A stretch of DNA of 64,000 nucleotides. It comes from Candidatus Poribacteria bacterium (GTDB lineage Bacteria; Poribacteria; WGA-4E; WGA-3G). Under the pieces are notes generated by a model, which did no database searches, was not told the DNA's origin, and saw only the letters and a list, made by a program, of their open reading frames with translations. The position numbers and the translations under genes were made by a program. Positions within the stretch are counted from its first letter, which is position 1, and each line of letters starts with the position of its first letter. This document shows, in pieces, positions 55,804 to 64,000 of the stretch. The stretch is from contig CBDANF010000003.1 of assembly GCA_965197475.1 (NCBI GenBank), positions 1,536,001 to 1,600,000 of the forward strand. The letters are read 5' to 3'.

Positions 55804-55892
55804 TATTTCTTTTCGCAATGAGTATTATTTGACGAAAATATCATAATGTGATTTTTTGCATCACGATTTATTAATATGATTTGCAATACTGG

Positions 55893-55928
55893 AAAAAGCA
55901 GTCTATGACTACACATAGACTGCTTTTT
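55893..55928. terminator. Bidirectional terminator hairpin
   Basis: AAAAAGCAGTCTATG / CATAGACTGCTTTTT perfect inverted repeat. Confidence 0.75.
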
Positions 55929-55965
55929 GACTTGACAGAAATATGTAAATTCTGCTATAATACAA

Positions 55966-56172
55966 TGTGGGAAATATGTTATTTGCGTAGCAAACGTAAC
56001 TTGTGTTCAGCAAGCCTTAATTGGCGTTGCATGTCTTTCAAGTTACGTATAAACCTTTGATTTCTTATCTTAGCCATTGCTTGCTTATGGCATATTTGGT
56101 TTTTGGTCAAAGCCACGATTGACACCTCCCATACTTGGCAGTGTTTGTTTGCTTAGCACTGCCATTCTTTTT
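55966..56172 (+). ncRNA. Candidate multi-stem ncRNA with its own promoter and terminator
   Basis: TTGACA-18-(TGc)TATAAT at 55932-55961; several nested helices; terminator TGGCAGTG/CACTGCCA plus T-tract. Confidence 0.55.
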
Positions 56173-57043
56173 ATCCTATTATAATTATAACATATATTCT
56201 TCATATCAGGAGACGTGTATATCACATTTAGAAAATATACGTTGGGGTAACAATCCAGAGTGCCCACATTGCGGTAGTTTCAAAATTAATCGTAGGAATG
56301 AAACCGAAACAGGTAAAATTGGTAGATGGGGTTGTCAAGAATGTAGAGCATCGTTCCGTGTGTTGCATGGCACCTTGTTTCACGGAACTAAAATACCTCT
56401 TCGAAAGTGGTTTTTAGCAATATCTTTGATGATAAACGCTAAGAAAAGTTTATCCAGTCATCAATTAGCACGTGATTTGGAATTGAATCAGAAAACGGCA
56501 TGGTCTATGATGCAAAAAATCCGTGCGGAGATGGCAACGAAAGGTAATACGTTGTTGAAAGGTATTATTGAGGCAGATGAAACATATATAGGCGGCAAGC
56601 CAAGAAAAAGGAATAAAAAGGAGGATCGAGAACCTGTCAAGCGTGGTCGTGGCACATCAAAAACTGCAATTATAGGTGTTGTTGAGAGAGGCGGTCAGGT
56701 TATTGCTAAAGTAACGGAGAATTTGACAGGTCGTGATATACTTAAGTTTATTAGGAAACATGTTAATTTGGCAGAATCTGAGTTAATGACTGATGAATTC
56801 AGGTCATATCAGCGTGTTGGCAAAGAAATAAAGCATCACATCATTAACCACAAGGAGCAATATGTAGATGGTGAAGTTCACACAAACACAATAGAAGGCT
56901 TTTGGAGTTTATTAAAACGTGCTTGGTATGGAACGCATCACCATTATTCTGTGACGTGGACACCTCTATATGTGGCAGAGGCATGCTATAATATAACTAC
57001 CGAGAAACCAACATCTTTGAGAAGTTTCTCACCGAAAGTATAA
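56135..57043 (+). pseudogene. IS1595 transposase lacking the normal N-terminus and frameshifted near the C-terminus
   Basis: CPHC zinc ribbon, EADETY, TDE and HTNTIEGFW; lacks MDLxKVMERFPD; ACY(K)YNY has lost one A. Confidence 0.85.
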
Positions 57044-57267
57044 CGTGAGAAATCTGAAAAATAAAAACTTCCAAGTCCAAAACGACTTATTGCGAAAAAT
57101 AATGCCGCACTAATTGCAAAATAAATTAAACAAGTATTTATTGCAATTTCGTTTTCTGTGCCTTTATATTTATAATAACGTTCTAAATCGCCTATTCCAA
57201 GAACAAAAAAACTGGTGATAAAGAAGTTGCAACAAAACAGATTCTTATTAATATTGTGAATGACCAA
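56986..57267 (-). CDS. Small hydrophobic cargo ORF
   Basis: Two hydrophobic stretches; start uncertain. Confidence 0.35.
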   Translation of the reverse strand: MVIHNINKNLFCCNFFITSFFVLGIGDLERYYKYKGTENEIAINTCLIYFAISAALFFAISRFGLGSFYFSDFSRYTFGEKLLKDVGFSVVIL

Positions 57268-57775: not shown

Positions 57776-58013
57776 GGCACTTTAATCAACTGTAGGAGCC
57801 GTTTGCTCCTGCAGTTGTTGTGCTTTGAATAGATTTAAAATTTTGTATTCTTTAAGTATATCATATTTTCGATCAAAAGCCTACAAAATTTCACTACGCC
57901 TAAAACTATTCGCAGCATTTATTTTTTAACGCAATGAGTAGTTTTGGACTTGATAAATTTGAGAAAAATTTTTCACTTGACAAAATCCTGCCAGTATAGT
58001 ATCCTATTAACAT

Positions 58014-58092
58014 CACGAATTTTGGTAGAGAATGTTAGCCGCGTCGCAAGGCGCGGTCTCTACCTCAACCGCCTAACATCGGAAAATTCGTG
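58014..58092 (+). ncRNA. Candidate pseudoknotted RNA
   Basis: P1 58014-23/58083-92, P2 58024-31/58057-64, GCAA-capped hairpin, and ATGTTAG/CTAACAT loop pairing; follows TTGACA-17-TATCCT. Confidence 0.6.
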
Positions 58093-58175
58093 TGTGTGAA
58101 TTCGTGAATCAATGCAACACATTTCATATATTTTATGGACTCACACAATGGAGTCTTTGCATCTAAAACCCCATT

Positions 58176-58668
58176 GTGCTGTGTCCTATGCCAAAGGAGT
58201 TTAGGATGCACAAAAAAGTTGGACCTGGTGGCGTTATTCTTAATCCTGTAAGCACACCACCGTGGGAATCACCAATAGATGAGGTTATAATACCTCCAGC
58301 ATTGTCACGTCCAGATGAATTTAAAACCAACTGGAAACAATTGTCGTTTTCATTCAAAGGTAGAATAAACCGAAAAGACTTTTGGATATATTTCTTAGGT
58401 ACTGGTTTATTATACATAACTTTTTGGGGCATTTTTGATATATACAGTAGGTGAAATTGCGTATTACGCTTTTATGATACCAATTAGTATCGTGAAATTC
58501 TTCTGGTGTGATAACGCTGTTATCGTGAAACGATGCCATGATTTTGGTAGATCTGCTTGGTATCTTATCCTATTTTACATACCTCCGATTGGTATAGTCA
58601 TTTGGTTTATGCTTGCTTTCAGTAAAGGTGATCCCGAACCAAACAAGTATGGCAACCCACCTAAATAA
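58176..58668 (+). pseudogene. DUF805 membrane protein, frameshifted
   Basis: FSFKGRINRKDFW in one frame; VKRCHDFGRSAW...KGDPEPNKYG in another. Confidence 0.8.
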
Positions 58669-58717
58669 CCCAACAACGAGGGGACTCTGTCCCCTCTAAC
58701 CACAAAGGAGAAATCCG

Positions 58718-58969
58718 ATGAATAATTTAGTCCAAGAACAACAAGGACAACTTCAACGAAAAGAAGATATTCAGAAAGGAGTAGCAGAACTTTTAATTAC
58801 TCCACTTCTGGATGACCTTGAAAAAGCATATAACGATTTTAAAAGTAAAGATTTAAAATCTATCCATCAACTAACACAGGCTTTGAGTATATTTGTGAAA
58901 AAGACAAATGAAATTAATTCACAAGTTAGTTATGTGAATAGTGTTCTTAATTATCTTTCACAGAATTAA
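58718..58969 (+). CDS. Small helical cargo protein
   Basis: AAGGAG RBS; 83 aa. Confidence 0.6.
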   Translation: MNNLVQEQQGQLQRKEDIQKGVAELLITPLLDDLEKAYNDFKSKDLKSIHQLTQALSIFVKKTNEINSQVSYVNSVLNYLSQN

Positions 58970-59132
58970 CCTTTTGACACATTTCATCAATAAGATGAAG
59001 ACCTTTGTTAAGTCTTTTTGTGTCACCGATATTCGTTCTTTTTACTAAATCAGTCATAGGACCGCGTAGGAATTGGATATGTTGTTCTTTACTGCGTGGT
59101 CCTTCTTTTCTTACTTCAATTTGTTCACTCAT
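58947..59132 (-). CDS. Small ORF translationally coupled to the transposase
   Basis: ATGA overlap with the transposase stop. Confidence 0.45.
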   Translation of the reverse strand: MSEQIEVRKEGPRSKEQHIQFLRGPMTDLVKRTNIGDTKRLNKGLHLIDEMCQKVNSVKDN

Positions 59133-60009
59133 CTCATACTTTCATTGACAAACTTATCAAAGATGCTGTCAACGCTCCTATAGTTATACTTATAGCACGC
59201 TTCCGCCACATATAGCGGTGTGTATCCTGTCTGATAGTGGTGATGACTTCCATACCAAGCGCGTTTGAGAAGCGACCAGAAGCCCTCAATCGTGTTCGTA
59301 TGGACATCACCCTCAGCAAACTGCACCTTGTGGTTGATAACAGCGTGCTTCATTTCTTTCCCAATAGCGTTGTAAGCCTGATATTCATCGGTTATTAGTT
59401 CCGATTTTTTAGGTTTACAGCACTCCGAATAAACTCAAGGATAGTGCGTCCTGTGAGGTTGTGTGCCACTTGTGCGACAACCCTACCTCCACGCTGCACT
59501 GCTCCTATTATAGCAGTTTTTTCAGTGCCTCTGCCACGTTTATGTGGTTCATCATCTTCACGTTTGTTCTTTTTACGAGGTTTACCGCCAATATAGGTCT
59601 CATCTGCTTCAATGATACCTTGTAGTAAAGCCCCGCCTTTCTTCGCCATTTCAGCACGGATACGAGTCATTATAAACCATGCTGTCTTTTGATTCAAGTC
59701 TAAATCGCGCGCAAGTTGATGACTTGACAAACTTTTCTTCGCATTCGTTATCAACGAAATAGCTAAAAACCACTTCTGTAACACTACCTTTGTCCCGTGA
59801 AACACCGACCTGCACGTCACCTTGAAACTCACTTGGCACTCGTGGCAGTTCCAACGACCGATACGACCGATCTTTGTCTCCTCACGCCTGCCCACATGAC
59901 CGCTTTCACAATGCGGACACACAGGTTTACCTCGCCAACGAATCTTCTCTAAATGCGAAATACAACTCTCTTGATCCGGGAAACGTTCCATCACCTTCAA
60001 CAAATCCAT
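59129..60009 (-). pseudogene. IS1595 transposase with a one-base frameshift in an A6 run
   Basis: The two ORFs join at about 59405-59410 (NLK.SELITDEY); complete DDE motifs. Confidence 0.88.
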
Positions 60010-60227
60010 CAGATAACTCCTTGAAATAGGAGTTGCTTTTTCTGACGGACTTCTGATACAATATCAGATAAGATTAAACCTTCAGAAAGCAACTCTGCTT
60101 TTTGGGTTAATTGGGAGGCTACAACCTCCCTTTTTTCTTATCTATATTATACCATATAAACCCAGTGGACACAAGGCTTTATAGCGATTTTTAAAATTTT
60201 TTATCAAGTCCAAAACTACTCATTGCG

Positions 60228-60772
60228 TAGAATTTTGGAGTGAGGGCAACCGACTTGGGGATGAGGTTCGTAAGACATACCAAGATAAGTACGGAGACTC
60301 ACAAACTACGCCACCGATGCACGTAATTGCCGAGTACGTCAATGCAGAGGCAGAACAAAATGAACGTTTCAACGAAACGTACTTAAACCAACAGATTACG
60401 CAAGGGAAACGCGCACGTGCAATAACCCGTATCTCACCTGTCGCGATTGTCCAACACCTTTTCGAATCTTTTGCCGGGACAGGGTTAGAACGGCATCTGC
60501 AATTTATTGAGAATGTGAAACGTTATGCTCGTGAATATCGAGATTTTGTAATTGATACTGACAGGGCGGATCCGATCAGCCTTCATGCTATTGGGGTGCC
60601 TGAGGGTATGTCGCAAAAGCCTGTCAGTCCAAAGGCGATTCCCAAATTTAAAGATAAACTCAGTCTCAACCGAGATTTCAACGCTGCGGCGATGGACTTA
60701 CTACTGTTGGTGCTGTTTCTAGTCGTGCTGTTTTCAGGGGCGTATCTTGCGTTTGTCCGCGTTGAAGTTTGA
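60228..60772 (+). pseudogene. 3' part of an ABC-2-type permease gene truncated by the IS
   Basis: Frame stays open back to the IS end (EFWSEGNRL...); RISP...ESFAGTG; C-terminal TM helix then FVRVEV. Confidence 0.7.
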
Positions 60773-60988
60773 AAATAGTTTAGGCAAAAAATTCACTCAT
60801 TTGGTGGATAGCTCCCAGAGCGTGCCTGCTGCTTTCAAATCAACACTTAGTGAACGGATAGCAAACGTTGAATTGACACTTGTAGGTTTCACTTTGTTCA
60901 ACCTAACTTACATGATGAACCAACTTTTATACAGCACTCACGTTGTAGTACGATACATTTTTTTAACACCTTTGCACTTTTAGCTCAG

Positions 60989-61109
60989 CAGAACTTACGC
61001 AAATTGGGCAGAAAAAGGAAATATTGGACTTAAAAAGTCGTTATTTAGGTATTTTAACCCCCTAAATCCCTCTTATCAAGGGACTTTTGAACCTAATGCG
61101 TAAGTCCTA
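60989..61109. mobile_element. MITE family B, copy 2 (121 bp)
   Basis: TIR CAGAACTTACGCA / TGCGTAAGTCCTA; 6-bp TSD GCTCAG. Confidence 0.88.
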
Positions 61110-61357
61110 GCTCAGTATGAGCACTAATTCAATTAATTTCGTGCGATTTTCCATTTTTACTATCCTTTTACGTTTTGCAGACTCTATTTCGTAACACAAC
61201 AAAAATTGGAGGAATTGAAAATGACAACCACATTGATTATCGGAATAAGTAGTTTTGGACATAAGAAAAACAGCATAAAATCAGACATAGACTGACATCG
61301 TAAGGGCTTCCTGACGAGGAAGATAATTGTTAGACCATTTCTTTTGATGGGAATTGG

Positions 61358-61480
61358 TTATAGATTGTGTTTAATCTTAAGTAGATAATTTTCAATAATC
61401 ATCATAATTAAACGCGATTCTATCACGTTTTGTCCTGCTTTTATTTCGTTGAGCAGGAACTGATTATTTTGGTTATACAT
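61358..61480 (-). CDS. Unlisted 40-aa small protein
   Basis: AAGGAGGTG RBS; MYNQNNQFLLNEIKAGQNVIESRLIMMIIENYLLKIKHNL. Confidence 0.55.
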   Translation of the reverse strand: MYNQNNQFLLNEIKAGQNVIESRLIMMIIENYLLKIKHNL

Positions 61481-61519
61481 AACTATCACCTCCTTTTATT
61501 TGAGTTAAAAGAGGTGGTC

Positions 61520-61614
61520 TAACAATCGCTTAACAATCGCTTAACAATCGCTTAACAATCGCTTAACAATCGCTTAACAATCGCTTAACAATCGCTTAAC
61601 AATCGCTTAACAAT
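61520..61614. repeat. 11-bp tandem repeat, 8 full copies plus a partial one
   Basis: (TAACAATCGCT)x8 + TAACAAT. Confidence 0.97.
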
Positions 61615-61869
61615 TAAAGCATTAAAAAGGAAGTTAATCAAGAAAAAGTAGAAAAGTGCTGTAAATGTAGATGGTTATTGACTTTTTCCTTGATTTAAAT
61701 GGTAAGAAATGGTATAATATAGGCAAGAAAATAGGGGGCGGACACCCCCTATTGAACCGAAAAAGCGGAGTTGCTTTTTCTAAGTTCTATCTTATCTATA
61801 TCATATTAAGATAGTATAGCACAATCTTTCAGAATAAAGCAACTCCTTTTGACATATAGGAGTATTCTG

Positions 61870-62751
61870 ATGGATTTAATCAAGGTTATGGAGAGATTCC
61901 CAGACCAGTCATCCTGTATTGAGTATCTTGAGAAGATACGATGGAAAGGTAAGCCTCATTGCCCACATTGTGGGATTACCGATGTTTTCAGGCGTAATGA
62001 GACGGCAACTGGTCGGATTGGTCGTTGGAATTGTAATGGTTGTAAGGCAACCTTCAAGGTTACTCAAGGCACAGTGTTTCACGGGGCTAAGATCGCACTT
62101 CAAAAGTGGTTTCTGGCTATTTCACTAATGGGAAACGCAAAGAAGAGCTTGTCCAGTTATCAGTTGAGTCGTGATTTAGACCTGAATCAGAAGACGGCTT
62201 GGTTTATGATGCAACGCATTCGTGCTGAAATGGCTACTAAAGGTCAAACTCTGCTGAAGGGTATTATTGAGGCAGATGAGACTTATATAGGGGGCAAACC
62301 TCGGAAAAAGAACAAGCGCGAGGACGATGAACCCGCCAAAAGAGGAAGGGGAACATCAAAATCCGCTATTCTTGGCGCAGTTGAGCGTGGAGGTAAGGTA
62401 GTAGCTAAACTTGCTGATGATTTAACGGGAAGGGGTATCCTGGCGTTTATTCGGGATGCTGTCAAAATAGATGAATCCGAACTGATAACCGATGAATATG
62501 CTGCTTACAATGAGATCGGAAAGCAGATAAAACATCGGGTTATCAATCACAAAGAACAGTTCGCTGATGGGGATACCCACACGAACACTATTGAAGGTTT
62601 TTGGGCGTTGTTGAAACGCGCATGGTATGGACAGCATCACCACTACTCTACTGGGTATATCCCGCTATATGTGGCTGAGGCTTGCTATAAATATAACTAC
62701 CGGAATGTGGATAGCATATTCTGGAAATTTGTTAATGAAAGTATGAGGTGA
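61870..62751 (+). CDS. Intact IS1595 transposase
   Basis: MDLIKVMERFPDQ, CPHC..CNGC, EADETY, TDE and HTNTIEGFW. Confidence 0.93.
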   Translation: MDLIKVMERFPDQSSCIEYLEKIRWKGKPHCPHCGITDVFRRNETATGRIGRWNCNGCKATFKVTQGTVFHGAKIALQKWFLAISLMGNAKKSLSSYQLSRDLDLNQKTAWFMMQRIRAEMATKGQTLLKGIIEADETYIGGKPRKKNKREDDEPAKRGRGTSKSAILGAVERGGKVVAKLADDLTGRGILAFIRDAVKIDESELITDEYAAYNEIGKQIKHRVINHKEQFADGDTHTNTIEGFWALLKRAWYGQHHHYSTGYIPLYVAEACYKYNYRNVDSIFWKFVNESMR

Positions 62752-62893
62752 AAAAATGACTAAAGAAAAACAAGTCTGCCAAGAATGTGGAAACAAAAAG
62801 GCCCGCCTACCTGTAAAAAAAAACAGATGGTAGACCTATTGAACCAATTAAAGCAATATGGAATGGAAGATTTAGGGAATATATCCGAAAAAA

Positions 62894-63477
62894 TTAAGTG
62901 TTCGTCCGAGCAACCCTAATCATATCGTCTAAAGTTTCTATTGATACTTTTAAATCTGAGATGATATTTTGTATATCAGTTTGGAGATTTGGTGGAATTG
63001 CACCGCTTTCAACGATCAAACAGCATTTACAAAGTGGTCGAATCTGTAAGGCACGGACATCTTTGGGGTTAATTTCTAATGCTGTTTCTACATAAGCGAG
63101 GGCATCAACAAAATTACCTGTTCTGAATTCATTGAGGCTAAGTCGGATTAACTCAGCTGCTTGTCTGGTGGATTTCATGGTTTTCTTCCCTATTTGTTGG
63201 CATGTTCGATTATAAACACGCCAAACTGATGTCGGATTTCTTTTGGCATTGAAGTGTCGAGGGTAGTCCACCCGAATTCTTGATTGGAAAGAACCCAATT
63301 TCTTAAATCTGAAGTGAGTGGATACAGGAAATGTTCGTTTTCAATAGCATTAACATACATTTTCCACATCTTTTTAGTATGTTCATCGCTTGATTGATCC
63401 ATCTTTTCTTTGTCAGCTCGAAGATGTGTTACCATAAAAAATACTACGATGATAACAAAGACACTGAAAATTATCAT
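62894..63477 (-). pseudogene. Membrane-anchored TPR cargo protein, probably one frameshifted gene
   Basis: ORF 63190-63477 (N-terminal TM helix) joins the TPR ORF if one C is added near 63200. Confidence 0.55.
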
Positions 63478-63732
63478 ATTGTACCCCTTAAATTGTAGGT
63501 TTGGTCATCCAGTAAATCCCAACTTCTCCACAAAAGAAGTGGGCATCCCTGGTGACCAAACCATAACACCTAACTTACATTAGATATGGGATACCCATAG
63601 TCCAATGGTGTTATAGTTTGGTCTGTTAAGAATTCTACAATTTTAAGAAGGGGAATGTCAAGTTAAAGGTGGGAATTTTGAAAAAAGTGGAGAAAAAAAT
63701 GAGAAATCTAATGTCCGAAACTACTTATTCCG

Positions 63733-64000
63733 TTGAAAAATGAGAAATTGCTCTCTGCGAAAGCGTTTGATAATCGTGTCGGTGTTGCACTTGTGATTGA
63801 CGCACTTTTGCGACTTGAAGAGCATCCGAATACCGTTATCGGGGCAGGGAGTGTGCAGGAAGAGATCGGATTGCGAGGCGCAAGGACAATGGTAGCAAGT
63901 GTGGAACCTGATCTCGCTATTGTACTTGAGGGACCGCCTGGAGATGATACACCAGGATTAAGCGTCGGATCAACACAAGGGAAACTTGGCAGCGGTGTAC
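63733..64000 (+). pseudogene. 3' half of an M42 (TET/FrvX) aminopeptidase truncated by the IS; runs off the window
   Basis: KAFDNRVG and VQEEIGLRGA motifs start directly at the IS end, with no start codon. Confidence 0.85.

Follow-up and report, generated by a model that had tools for sequence, protein, structure and literature searches.

A predicted two-state RNA leader and a putative cis-antisense RNA in IS1595-family insertion sequences of Candidatus Poribacteria

In IS10, the antisense RNA known as RNA-OUT is about 70 nt long, is transcribed from a convergent promoter near the start of the transposase mRNA, begins to pair through its loop, covers the ribosome-binding site (RBS) and AUG of RNA-IN, and gives rise to multicopy inhibition. 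A different logic is used by the replication genes of the plasmids pT181 (RNAI/repC) and IncB/IncI (RNAI-repA), where a preemptor or activator segment located upstream is captured by the antisense RNA, which allows an inhibitory hairpin to form further downstream; the output is termination or the loss of a pseudoknot. Here we analyze the 5' leaders of two IS1595-family insertion sequences (IS), elements 2 and 3, that lie in a 64,000-nt stretch of a Candidatus Poribacteria genome (assembly GCA_965197475.1, contig CBDANF010000003.1, positions 1,536,001 to 1,600,000, forward strand; the window, numbered from its first nucleotide). The reading that we favor, with modest confidence, is that transposase translation in this IS1595 clade is governed by a three-part RNA switch together with a cis-antisense RNA.

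In IS200, the small RNA (sRNA) art200 is reportedly encoded in cis opposite the 5' untranslated region (5'UTR) of tnpA and pairs with tnpA to block initiation directly, while structure in the mRNA represses translation independently of the sRNA and transposition is kept low (PMC4513863). The IS1595 leaders resemble IS200 in combining a small RNA (predicted in our case) opposite the transposase 5'UTR with a translation-repressing mRNA structure. They differ from it in that the predicted antisense RNA ends approximately 50 nt (element 3) or 60 nt (element 2) upstream of the Shine-Dalgarno sequence (SD), would act through a switch between two leader pairings instead of a direct block of initiation, and belongs to a DDE transposase of the IS1595 type, not to IS200/IS605. 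In ISPpu9, a long 5'UTR reportedly folds over the RBS, and a stable antisense sRNA, Asr9, is complementary to this 5'UTR; Asr9 promotes translation by aiding the unfolding, and a second sRNA (Ssr9) counteracts it (PMC8450116). The IS1595 leaders share with ISPpu9 an RBS-hiding fold and an antisense RNA, here predicted, complementary to the 5'UTR. In our case, however, the antisense RNA is complementary to a segment, U, that would oppose the sequestration, so that repression is predicted, and no second sRNA was seen. The likeness to IS10 lies in the size and promoter arrangement of the predicted antisense RNA, and the difference in the overlap, which here is confined to the first ~75 nt of a leader of ~145 nt. 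By analogy, the logic of the module appears closest to the plasmid systems pT181 and IncB, with which it shares mutually exclusive pairings and an upstream segment, U, contained within the predicted antisense RNA; in the window copies, however, the output would be sequestration of SD and AUG, with no U-run after the SD hairpin. Antisense restraint of transposases is already known, and for the IS1595 family it seems undescribed: our literature searches (IS1595 with antisense RNA or RBS structure, IS and antisense RNA more broadly, and IS of Poribacteria) returned no description of such a module, in agreement with a remark in the first-pass annotation of this DNA. We tentatively suggest, with rather less confidence than in the switch itself, that this may be the first riboregulated element of the IS1595 family and the first IS with plasmid-style preemptor logic, the ~73-nt antisense RNA serving as a trans-acting copy-number sensor that captures the U segment of every related copy.

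The model that we propose is as follows. The transposase mRNA would start at a TGnTATAAT promoter. In the OFF state, a leader segment named X (…CAGAAAAAGCAACUCC) would pair with the SD and the AUG, and in the ON state the upstream segment U (GAGUUGCUUUUUCUG…) would pair with X instead, thereby freeing the start site. From a convergent promoter within the leader, an antisense RNA of 62-84 nt (median 73) would be transcribed up to a GC hairpin and U-tract just inside the 5' end of the mRNA. With U occupied by this RNA, X would be available to shut the start site, and translation would stay off; the first contact would probably be made between a CAACUC hairpin on the antisense side and its complement in the mRNA, the GAGUUG hairpin (P3). 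Being diffusible, the antisense RNA would repress more strongly the more related copies there are, and transposase synthesis would be expected to fall as antisense-producing copies increase.

The elements, and the features of their leaders on the sense strand, are given below; R1 is a covariance model of the leader.

57930..60227, minus strand: element 2, IS1595 family, subfamily E, 2298 bp (terminal repeats, Pfam)
61241..63732, plus strand: element 3, IS1595 family, subfamily A, 2492 bp (terminal repeats, Pfam)
60146..60174, minus strand: element 2 sense promoter, TTGTGT (60169-60174), 17-nt spacer, extended -10 TGGTATAAT (60146-60154)
61690..61718, plus strand: element 3 sense promoter, TTGATT, 17-nt spacer, TATAAT with TG extension (promoter scan, 10/12 matches)
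61710-61718, plus strand: element 3 extended -10, TGGTATAAT
59995..60145, minus strand: element 2 leader (R1 155.1 bits, E 2.5e-22)
61719..61884, plus strand: element 3 leader (R1 118.6 bits, E 2e-16)
60136-60142 and 60067-60073, minus strand: element 2 P1, GATAAGA/TCTTATC
61722-28 and 61790-96, plus strand: element 3 P1, imperfect
60113-60130, minus strand: element 2 P2, the GC hairpin, GGGAGG/CCTCCC
61730-61753, plus strand: element 3 P2, AATAGGGGG/CCCCCTATT
60079-60103, minus strand: element 2 P3/U, AAAAAGC-AGAGTT-GCTTT
61760-61781, plus strand: element 3 P3/U, AAAAAGC-GGAGTT-GCTTTTT
60053-67, minus strand: element 2 P4 palindrome
60029-50, minus strand: element 2 X, with AACTCCT at 60028-60034
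61827-47, plus strand: element 3 X, with AACTCCT at 61841-61847
60015-60021, minus strand: element 2 SD, AGGAGTT; AUG at 60007-09
61858-61863, plus strand: element 3 SD, AGGAGT; AUG at 61870

In element 2, GAGTTGCTTT in U (60079-60096) is complementary to AAAGCAACTC in X (60029-50). X also pairs with the AUG region (AAATCCGTCAGA with TCTGATGGATTT), a pairing not given in the first-pass annotation. The motifs listed by the first-pass annotation were found in both copies, apart from the GATAAGA given for the P1 5' arm, which in element 3 reads GGCAAGA (61722-61728) and leaves a C/A mismatch and a G-U pair in P1. Since the P1 5' arm starts 4 nt past the -10 hexamer, part of it may precede the transcription start. 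When 47 distinct leaders were compared, only 16 columns were invariant; the T, A, and T of the sense -10 account for three of them and the mirror pattern in the P4 region for three more. In many lineages an AAACCC…GGGTTT hairpin followed by T lies between the left terminal repeat and the sense -35, which it overlaps (60155-60207, minus strand, and relatives; weak in element 2 of the window); this hairpin could stop read-in transcription from outside the element.

Minimum-free-energy folding placed the entire initiation region, SD and AUG included, within a long interrupted hairpin in both window copies. SD and AUG were paired in both folds, whose z-scores were -5.86 (element 2) and -4.95 (element 3); none of 200 shuffled sequences folded as well. 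R1 gave 74 matches in 86 sources. The results of covariation scoring showed that the OFF structure (P1, P2, P3, P4, and X with the start site) scored 0.184 compared with 0.120 after shuffling (0/500 shuffles as high) and at most 0.107 when the partners were slid, and that the U-X pairing scored 0.142 compared with 0.079, again with 0/500 shuffles reaching the observed value. The U-X core GAGTTG/CAACTC was 96.6% paired.

Covariation was scored on an R1-fitted alignment of 54 distinct rows, so that the alignments are fitted to the structures modelled; on a plain MAFFT alignment the pair counts are weaker because the helices fall out of register.

Because the register of the helices varies from lineage to lineage, cognate partners were also compared with non-cognate ones by duplex energy, using 28 cluster representatives with at most 80% identity to each other (the partial or atypical rows L043, L089, L050, and L087 were dropped beforehand). 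The cognate U-X duplexes had a mean energy of -18.9 kcal and the permuted ones -15.0±0.47 kcal, and the corresponding values for X with the start site were -15.3 and -12.7±0.50 kcal; in neither case was any of 20000 permutations as good. In the same test P3 gave p=0.00005 and P1 p=0.0007, so that the P1 helix of the first-pass annotation does co-vary, even though it sits partly ahead of the expected transcription start; four control segment pairs gave p values of 0.21-0.67. Compensated changes between U and X can also be seen by eye (GTAT/ATAC, GCAT/ATGC, GCGTTAAC/GTTAATGC). A conserved, structured leader that hides the RBS, and the pairing of an upstream GAGTTGC (U) with the anti-RBS arm (X), had both been put forward in the first-pass annotation, and both are supported: in the aligned IS1595 leaders the U-X complementarity is kept across copies, not lost. 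The U-X pairing excludes the AAAAGC hairpin (P3) as well as the pairing of X with the start site, and since both mutually exclusive pairings of X co-vary, the alignments support a leader of genuine two-state design. When the first ~85 nt were blocked in the folding model, the mean probability of the SD being unpaired fell from 0.28 to 0.12, and in leaders leaning to ON a blocked 5' stretch took it from 0.5-0.6 to approximately 0.01.

In 15 of the 52 distinct leaders there are at least five T in the 8 nt after the SD hairpin, just before the start codon (e.g. AAAGGAGTTTTTTATG; such leaders include L075, L077, L082, L084, L095, L099, and L100), an arrangement that resembles an intrinsic terminator and hints at a variant of the switch that works by attenuation. 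The window copies have 3-4 T of 8 at this place, i.e. no U-run.

The features predicted on the opposite strand are listed next; R2 is a covariance model of the predicted antisense RNA.

60033..60062, plus strand: element 2 predicted antisense promoter, TTGCTT (60033-38), 18-nt spacer, TGATACAAT (60054-62), identified from the sequence
60069..60140, plus strand: element 2 predicted cis-antisense RNA, ~72 nt (terminator scan, R2 72.5 bits)
61724..61842, minus strand: element 3 predicted antisense unit, -35 TTGCTT (61837-42), 18-nt spacer, TGCTATACT (61813-21)
61724-61806, minus strand: element 3 predicted antisense RNA, ~83 nt (R2 match 61724-61794, 68.7 bits)

The predicted antisense promoter lies inside the leader and consists of an extended -10, TGnTAYAAT, with a TTG -35 at 17-18 nt. 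Among the 52 distinct leaders, the -10 hexamer was TACAAT in 23, TATAAT in 19, TAGAAT in four, and another sequence in six; it matched the consensus at 5-6 of 6 positions in 50, was preceded by the TG extension in 43, and had the TTG -35 in 46. The near-palindromic P4 site reads more poorly in the sense direction (hexamer 4-5 of 6, TG in 28/52, TTG -35 in 5/52). A sense-direction promoter in the P4 palindrome was rejected as weaker and without a conserved -35, although subfamilies C and D have TTGACG-17-TATTAT by eye. By eye, too, ATTnTA is kept whether it falls in the stem or in the loop of P4, which suggests that the sequence and not the structure is conserved.

The GC hairpin lies 62-84 nt (median 73) downstream of the antisense promoter, which gives the predicted RNA length. 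The 8 nt past it contain on average 3.4 T in the antisense direction and 1.0 in the sense direction, and four or more T were found in 24 and 1 of the 52 leaders, respectively, so that the T-run is a feature of the antisense direction only. A consensus scan of the antisense strand reported terminator-like sites at 60113-60130 followed by TTTTTTCTTA and at 61749-61733 followed by ATTTTCTTGC. The predicted RNA comprises a 5' tail, then a hairpin whose loop contains or borders on an invariant CAAC core (usually CAACUC), and lastly the terminator. In element 2 it would form a hairpin, SL1, with CAACUC in or beside the loop, and then the terminator hairpin 60113-60130 with TTTTTTCTT (fold -24.0 kcal, z -4.0); in element 3 the terminator hairpin 61733-61749 is followed by ATTTTCTT (fold -29.3 kcal, z -4.5). 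Both copies in the window were matched by R2, and after realignment with the covariance model the structure scored 0.199 in covariation compared with 0.135 for shuffled alignments (0/500) and at most 0.150 with slid partners; when 28 predicted antisense RNAs were aligned with MAFFT, RNAalifold recovered only four terminator pairs. By position, U lies inside the predicted RNA. Its complementarity to the mRNA is perfect over the first ~75 nt, U included, and stops short of the SD and start codon (60069-60140 compared with an SD at 60015-60021 in element 2; 61724-61806 compared with 61858-61863 in element 3).

We compared the stability of the pairings on the two strands; these comparisons separate the parts of the leader because strand-specific stability depends on G-U pairs. 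The predicted antisense RNA was more stable than its sense mirror in 39 of 50 distinct sequences and less stable in 6 (mean z -5.0 compared with -3.6). The P3 arms paired better as antisense (25 vs 4 of 38), as did the GC hairpin (22 vs 13 of 46), in which four lineages have an A/C mismatch on the sense strand that becomes G-U on the antisense strand. By contrast, U-X (16 vs 4 of 40), X with the start site (32 vs 7 of 43), and P1 (14 vs 5 of 42) were better on the sense strand. The first-pass annotation had read the leader as a three-stem RNA, mentioned alongside phage cloverleaf RNAs, that turns translation on as a switch or as a processed species of ~80 nt. Nothing points to such a processed sense-strand species, and the two cloverleaf hairpins fold better as antisense and lie between a conserved antisense promoter and an antisense-only T-run. 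The cloverleaf region looks like the gene for a predicted cis-antisense RNA of ~73 nt, with the hairpins as body and terminator of an RNA that would keep translation off.

About 40 copies of this IS1595 clade, which fall into at least seven subfamilies, are present in the genome of the window; their proteins are 63-100% identical to that of element 3. A full leader was found in 37 of the 40 copies examined; the others are a copy truncated by another insertion, an N-terminally truncated copy, and element 1, whose ~300-nt upstream region is neither matched by the leader model nor similar to the other leaders. In the leader-truncated subfamily A copy (genome G000, C3:3353261-3354139) the cut falls at the P1 3' arm, apparently by the end of another IS, and the promoter, U, and antisense terminator are gone while X and the start site are kept. 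A scan with one genome per species yielded 80 related loci (63-80% protein identity), all in Candidatus Poribacteria assemblies, and R1 matched next to the transposase gene in 66 of them. Among the 14 unmatched loci, 10 belong to a single genome and have an unstructured leader of ~40 nt, L102 has no leader, and L047, L056, and L092 have divergent versions visible by eye. Across the phylum, R1 matched in 74 of the 151 genomes sampled; by family, the matches were 71/99 in the window's family, 2/26 in a second family, and 0/25 in the other seven families sampled. Two distant IS1595 families of the same genome (28-30% identity) have leaders of ~45 nt without any such module; they are represented outside the window by about 35 copies and four copies, with the terminal repeat GGCTCATGTAAAAAGTAAGTGCT. 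The IS1595 load of genome G000 is unusually heavy (80 matches to PF12762). An Rfam scan of 57800-64000 on both strands, with E values up to 5, gave no credible family; the four matches were at chance level, below gathering scores, and all to eukaryotic families.

Several observations speak against the proposed switch or reduce the weight of the figures given for it. The shuffle and permutation values overstate independence, since the sequences are related. The difference G(ON)-G(OFF) had a median of +0.5 kcal, was below 3 kcal in 35 of 52 leaders and favored ON in 23 of 52 in thermodynamic models, a near-equality for which there is no null model. In the window copies OFF was favored by 4.4 and 5.6 kcal and the probability of an unpaired SD was about 0.01, so that the ON state would need to be reached by a kinetic or assisted route. 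The antisense -35 overlaps X, and part of the conservation of X could therefore serve the promoter and not the pairing. Column-wise counts of G-U against A-C (40 vs 32 for P1, 48 vs 63 for U-X, and 31 vs 72 for P2) did not assign a strand, which the energy-based comparisons did. Assembled contigs from four sponge metatranscriptome runs gave low, patchy cover of the transposase genes over 59100-62800; contigs at such low depth cannot show small RNAs, starts, ends, or strand, and the lack of any cover over 60092-60215 is at this depth not evidence of absence. One lineage (10 loci in one genome, with the ~40-nt leader) does without the whole module. Finally, since the antisense RNA of ISPpu9 is reported to activate translation (PMC8450116), the direction of the effect is not to be presumed.

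The module-less lineage (L061-L064 and L067-L072; 74% protein identity) has the terminal repeat directly followed by TTGACT…TGGTAAAAT and the ~40-nt leader, and its loss of the module would fit escape from control.

The possibility exists that the leader is a switch in cis only, as the first-pass annotation had it in one of its readings, with co-transcriptional folding, temperature, or the binding of a factor (the transposase, for instance) toggling between U-X and X with the start site, and that there is no antisense RNA, its promoter and terminator look-alikes being by-products of a palindrome and a 5' stabilizing hairpin. We regard this as unlikely, although it has to be taken seriously: both alternative pairings co-vary and their energies are close, TATTATA is nearly palindromic and places a -10-like hexamer on both strands, and no antisense transcript was seen in the metatranscriptome contigs, which are unable to show small RNAs. 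Against it, the antisense reading of the promoter is the better conserved one (TTG -35, 46 vs 5 of 52; TG, 43 vs 28), the T-run occurs in the antisense direction only, the P2/P3 region folds better as antisense RNA, and ATTnTA is kept irrespective of P4 stem or loop by eye.

It is also possible that RBS sequestration is constitutive and that an antisense RNA acts through duplex-triggered mRNA decay or transcriptional interference, U-X having no regulatory role. The OFF fold dominates in the window copies and the convergent promoters are approximately 90 nt apart, as this explanation would have it, and the two layers of IS200 are reported to act independently (PMC4513863). We nevertheless consider it quite improbable, because U and X co-vary outside the -35 TTG and outside the anti-SD, and because U-X is more stable on the sense strand (16 vs 4 of 40).

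Attenuation in the manner of pT181, with the X-SD hairpin as terminator, U-X as antiterminator, and an antisense RNA that forces termination before the transposase gene, would agree with the T-run behind the SD hairpin in 15/52 distinct leaders. The window copies, however, have only 3-4 T there and their AUG region is paired with X instead, and the SD hairpins are short (~7 bp, -7 to -8 kcal), making it very unlikely that this is how the leader works.

It is hardly credible that the leader functions at the DNA level, as subterminal binding sites or through a guide-like RNA that recognizes the element ends, since the loose resemblance between U and the terminal repeat (GAGT.G.TTTT) is set against terminal repeats that stay constant while U varies between lineages (by eye), the ground on which a link of the guide-RNA or bridge-RNA kind was rejected, and against a G-U-dependent, strand-specific stability that points to RNA.

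The preferred reading remains the three-part switch with a cis-antisense RNA, and the elements studied were delimited as follows. A 20-nt terminal-repeat pattern, CGSAATRAGTMGTTTYGGAC, matched six times in the window where 0.01 matches were expected, and bounds three IS1595-family elements, of which the leaders of the second and third are the sites under study.

55814-57094: element 1, IS1595 family (terminal-repeat pattern)
57930-57949, plus strand, and 60208-60227, minus strand: 20-nt terminal inverted repeats of element 2, CGCAATGAGTAGTTTTGGAC
61241-61260, plus strand, and 63713-63732, minus strand: terminal inverted repeats of element 3
60228-61240: outside both element 2 and element 3
61870-62751, plus strand: intact transposase gene of element 3
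59395-60009 and 59129-59353, minus strand: frameshifted transposase gene of element 2

The boundaries of element 2 were set from four copies, which diverge exactly at the terminal repeats. The transposase of element 3, present in the genome as six copies with 100% identical protein, matched DDE_Tnp_IS1595 (PF12762, 7e-35) and Zn_ribbon_IS1595 (PF12760, 1.2e-11), and both domains were also matched in elements 1 and 2. Element 1 is a degenerate relative with 70% identity from residue 13 on and three mismatches in its left terminal repeat. The element 2 transposase gene falls into two frames, encoding residues 1-201 and 197-293, and every one of the four subfamily E copies in the genome shows this split; RNA-library contigs of close relatives have an extra G behind 59404; the frameshifted lineage still reached four copies, perhaps by being mobilized in trans.

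Subfamilies A-E carry ~0.8-1.2 kb of passenger DNA 3' of the transposase gene (57950-59128 and 62752-63712 in the window), whereas subfamily F alone has the form of a simple IS, 1.15 kb long and ending 56 nt beyond the stop codon. The passenger of element 2 contains a split DUF805 gene (58176-58668; second part 4e-15) and that of element 3 two small open reading frames on the opposite strand, one with a weak TPR match. In element 3, the DNA that separates the transposase promoter from the left terminal repeat includes a perfect 11-bp tandem array, TAACAATCGCT, of 8.6 copies (61520-61614). This ~450-bp stretch, array included, is confined to subfamily A, whose copies lose register inside the array, suggesting that the repeat number varies. 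The target duplication of IS1595 is 8 bp long. Inspection by eye showed one subfamily F copy flanked on both sides by TTTTTTTA; the flanks of the other copies are unequal, and two copies with swapped flanks suggest recombination between copies. Between elements 2 and 3, at 60988-61087, there is a repeat of ~100 bp with inverted ends (ACTTACGCAA…TGCGTAAGT) that resembles a miniature transposable element. Its summed contig depth was 266-401 in the four metatranscriptome runs, compared with less than 35 elsewhere on the stretch. The contigs run out into differing flanks at either end, which marks the repeat as a multi-copy element contained in the RNA libraries.

If the proposed mechanism holds, the transposons restrained by antisense RNA would gain a new DDE family, the plasmid-type capture of a preemptor by an antisense RNA would have been adopted by an insertion sequence, and the leader would represent an RNA family new to Rfam. 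At ~145 nt the module is compact; it is also rich in covariation and naturally diversified, which makes it tractable for work on two-state RNA design and on cross-talk between co-resident IS subfamilies. The clade occurs in great numbers in the genomes of sponge symbionts, and the present genome has about 40 copies. If the antisense RNA does serve as a copy-number sensor, subfamilies that differ in the sequences of U, X, and the antisense RNA would behave like incompatibility groups, and an element that loses the module would be freed from control, as may be the case for the leaderless lineage, of which a single genome has at least 10 copies.

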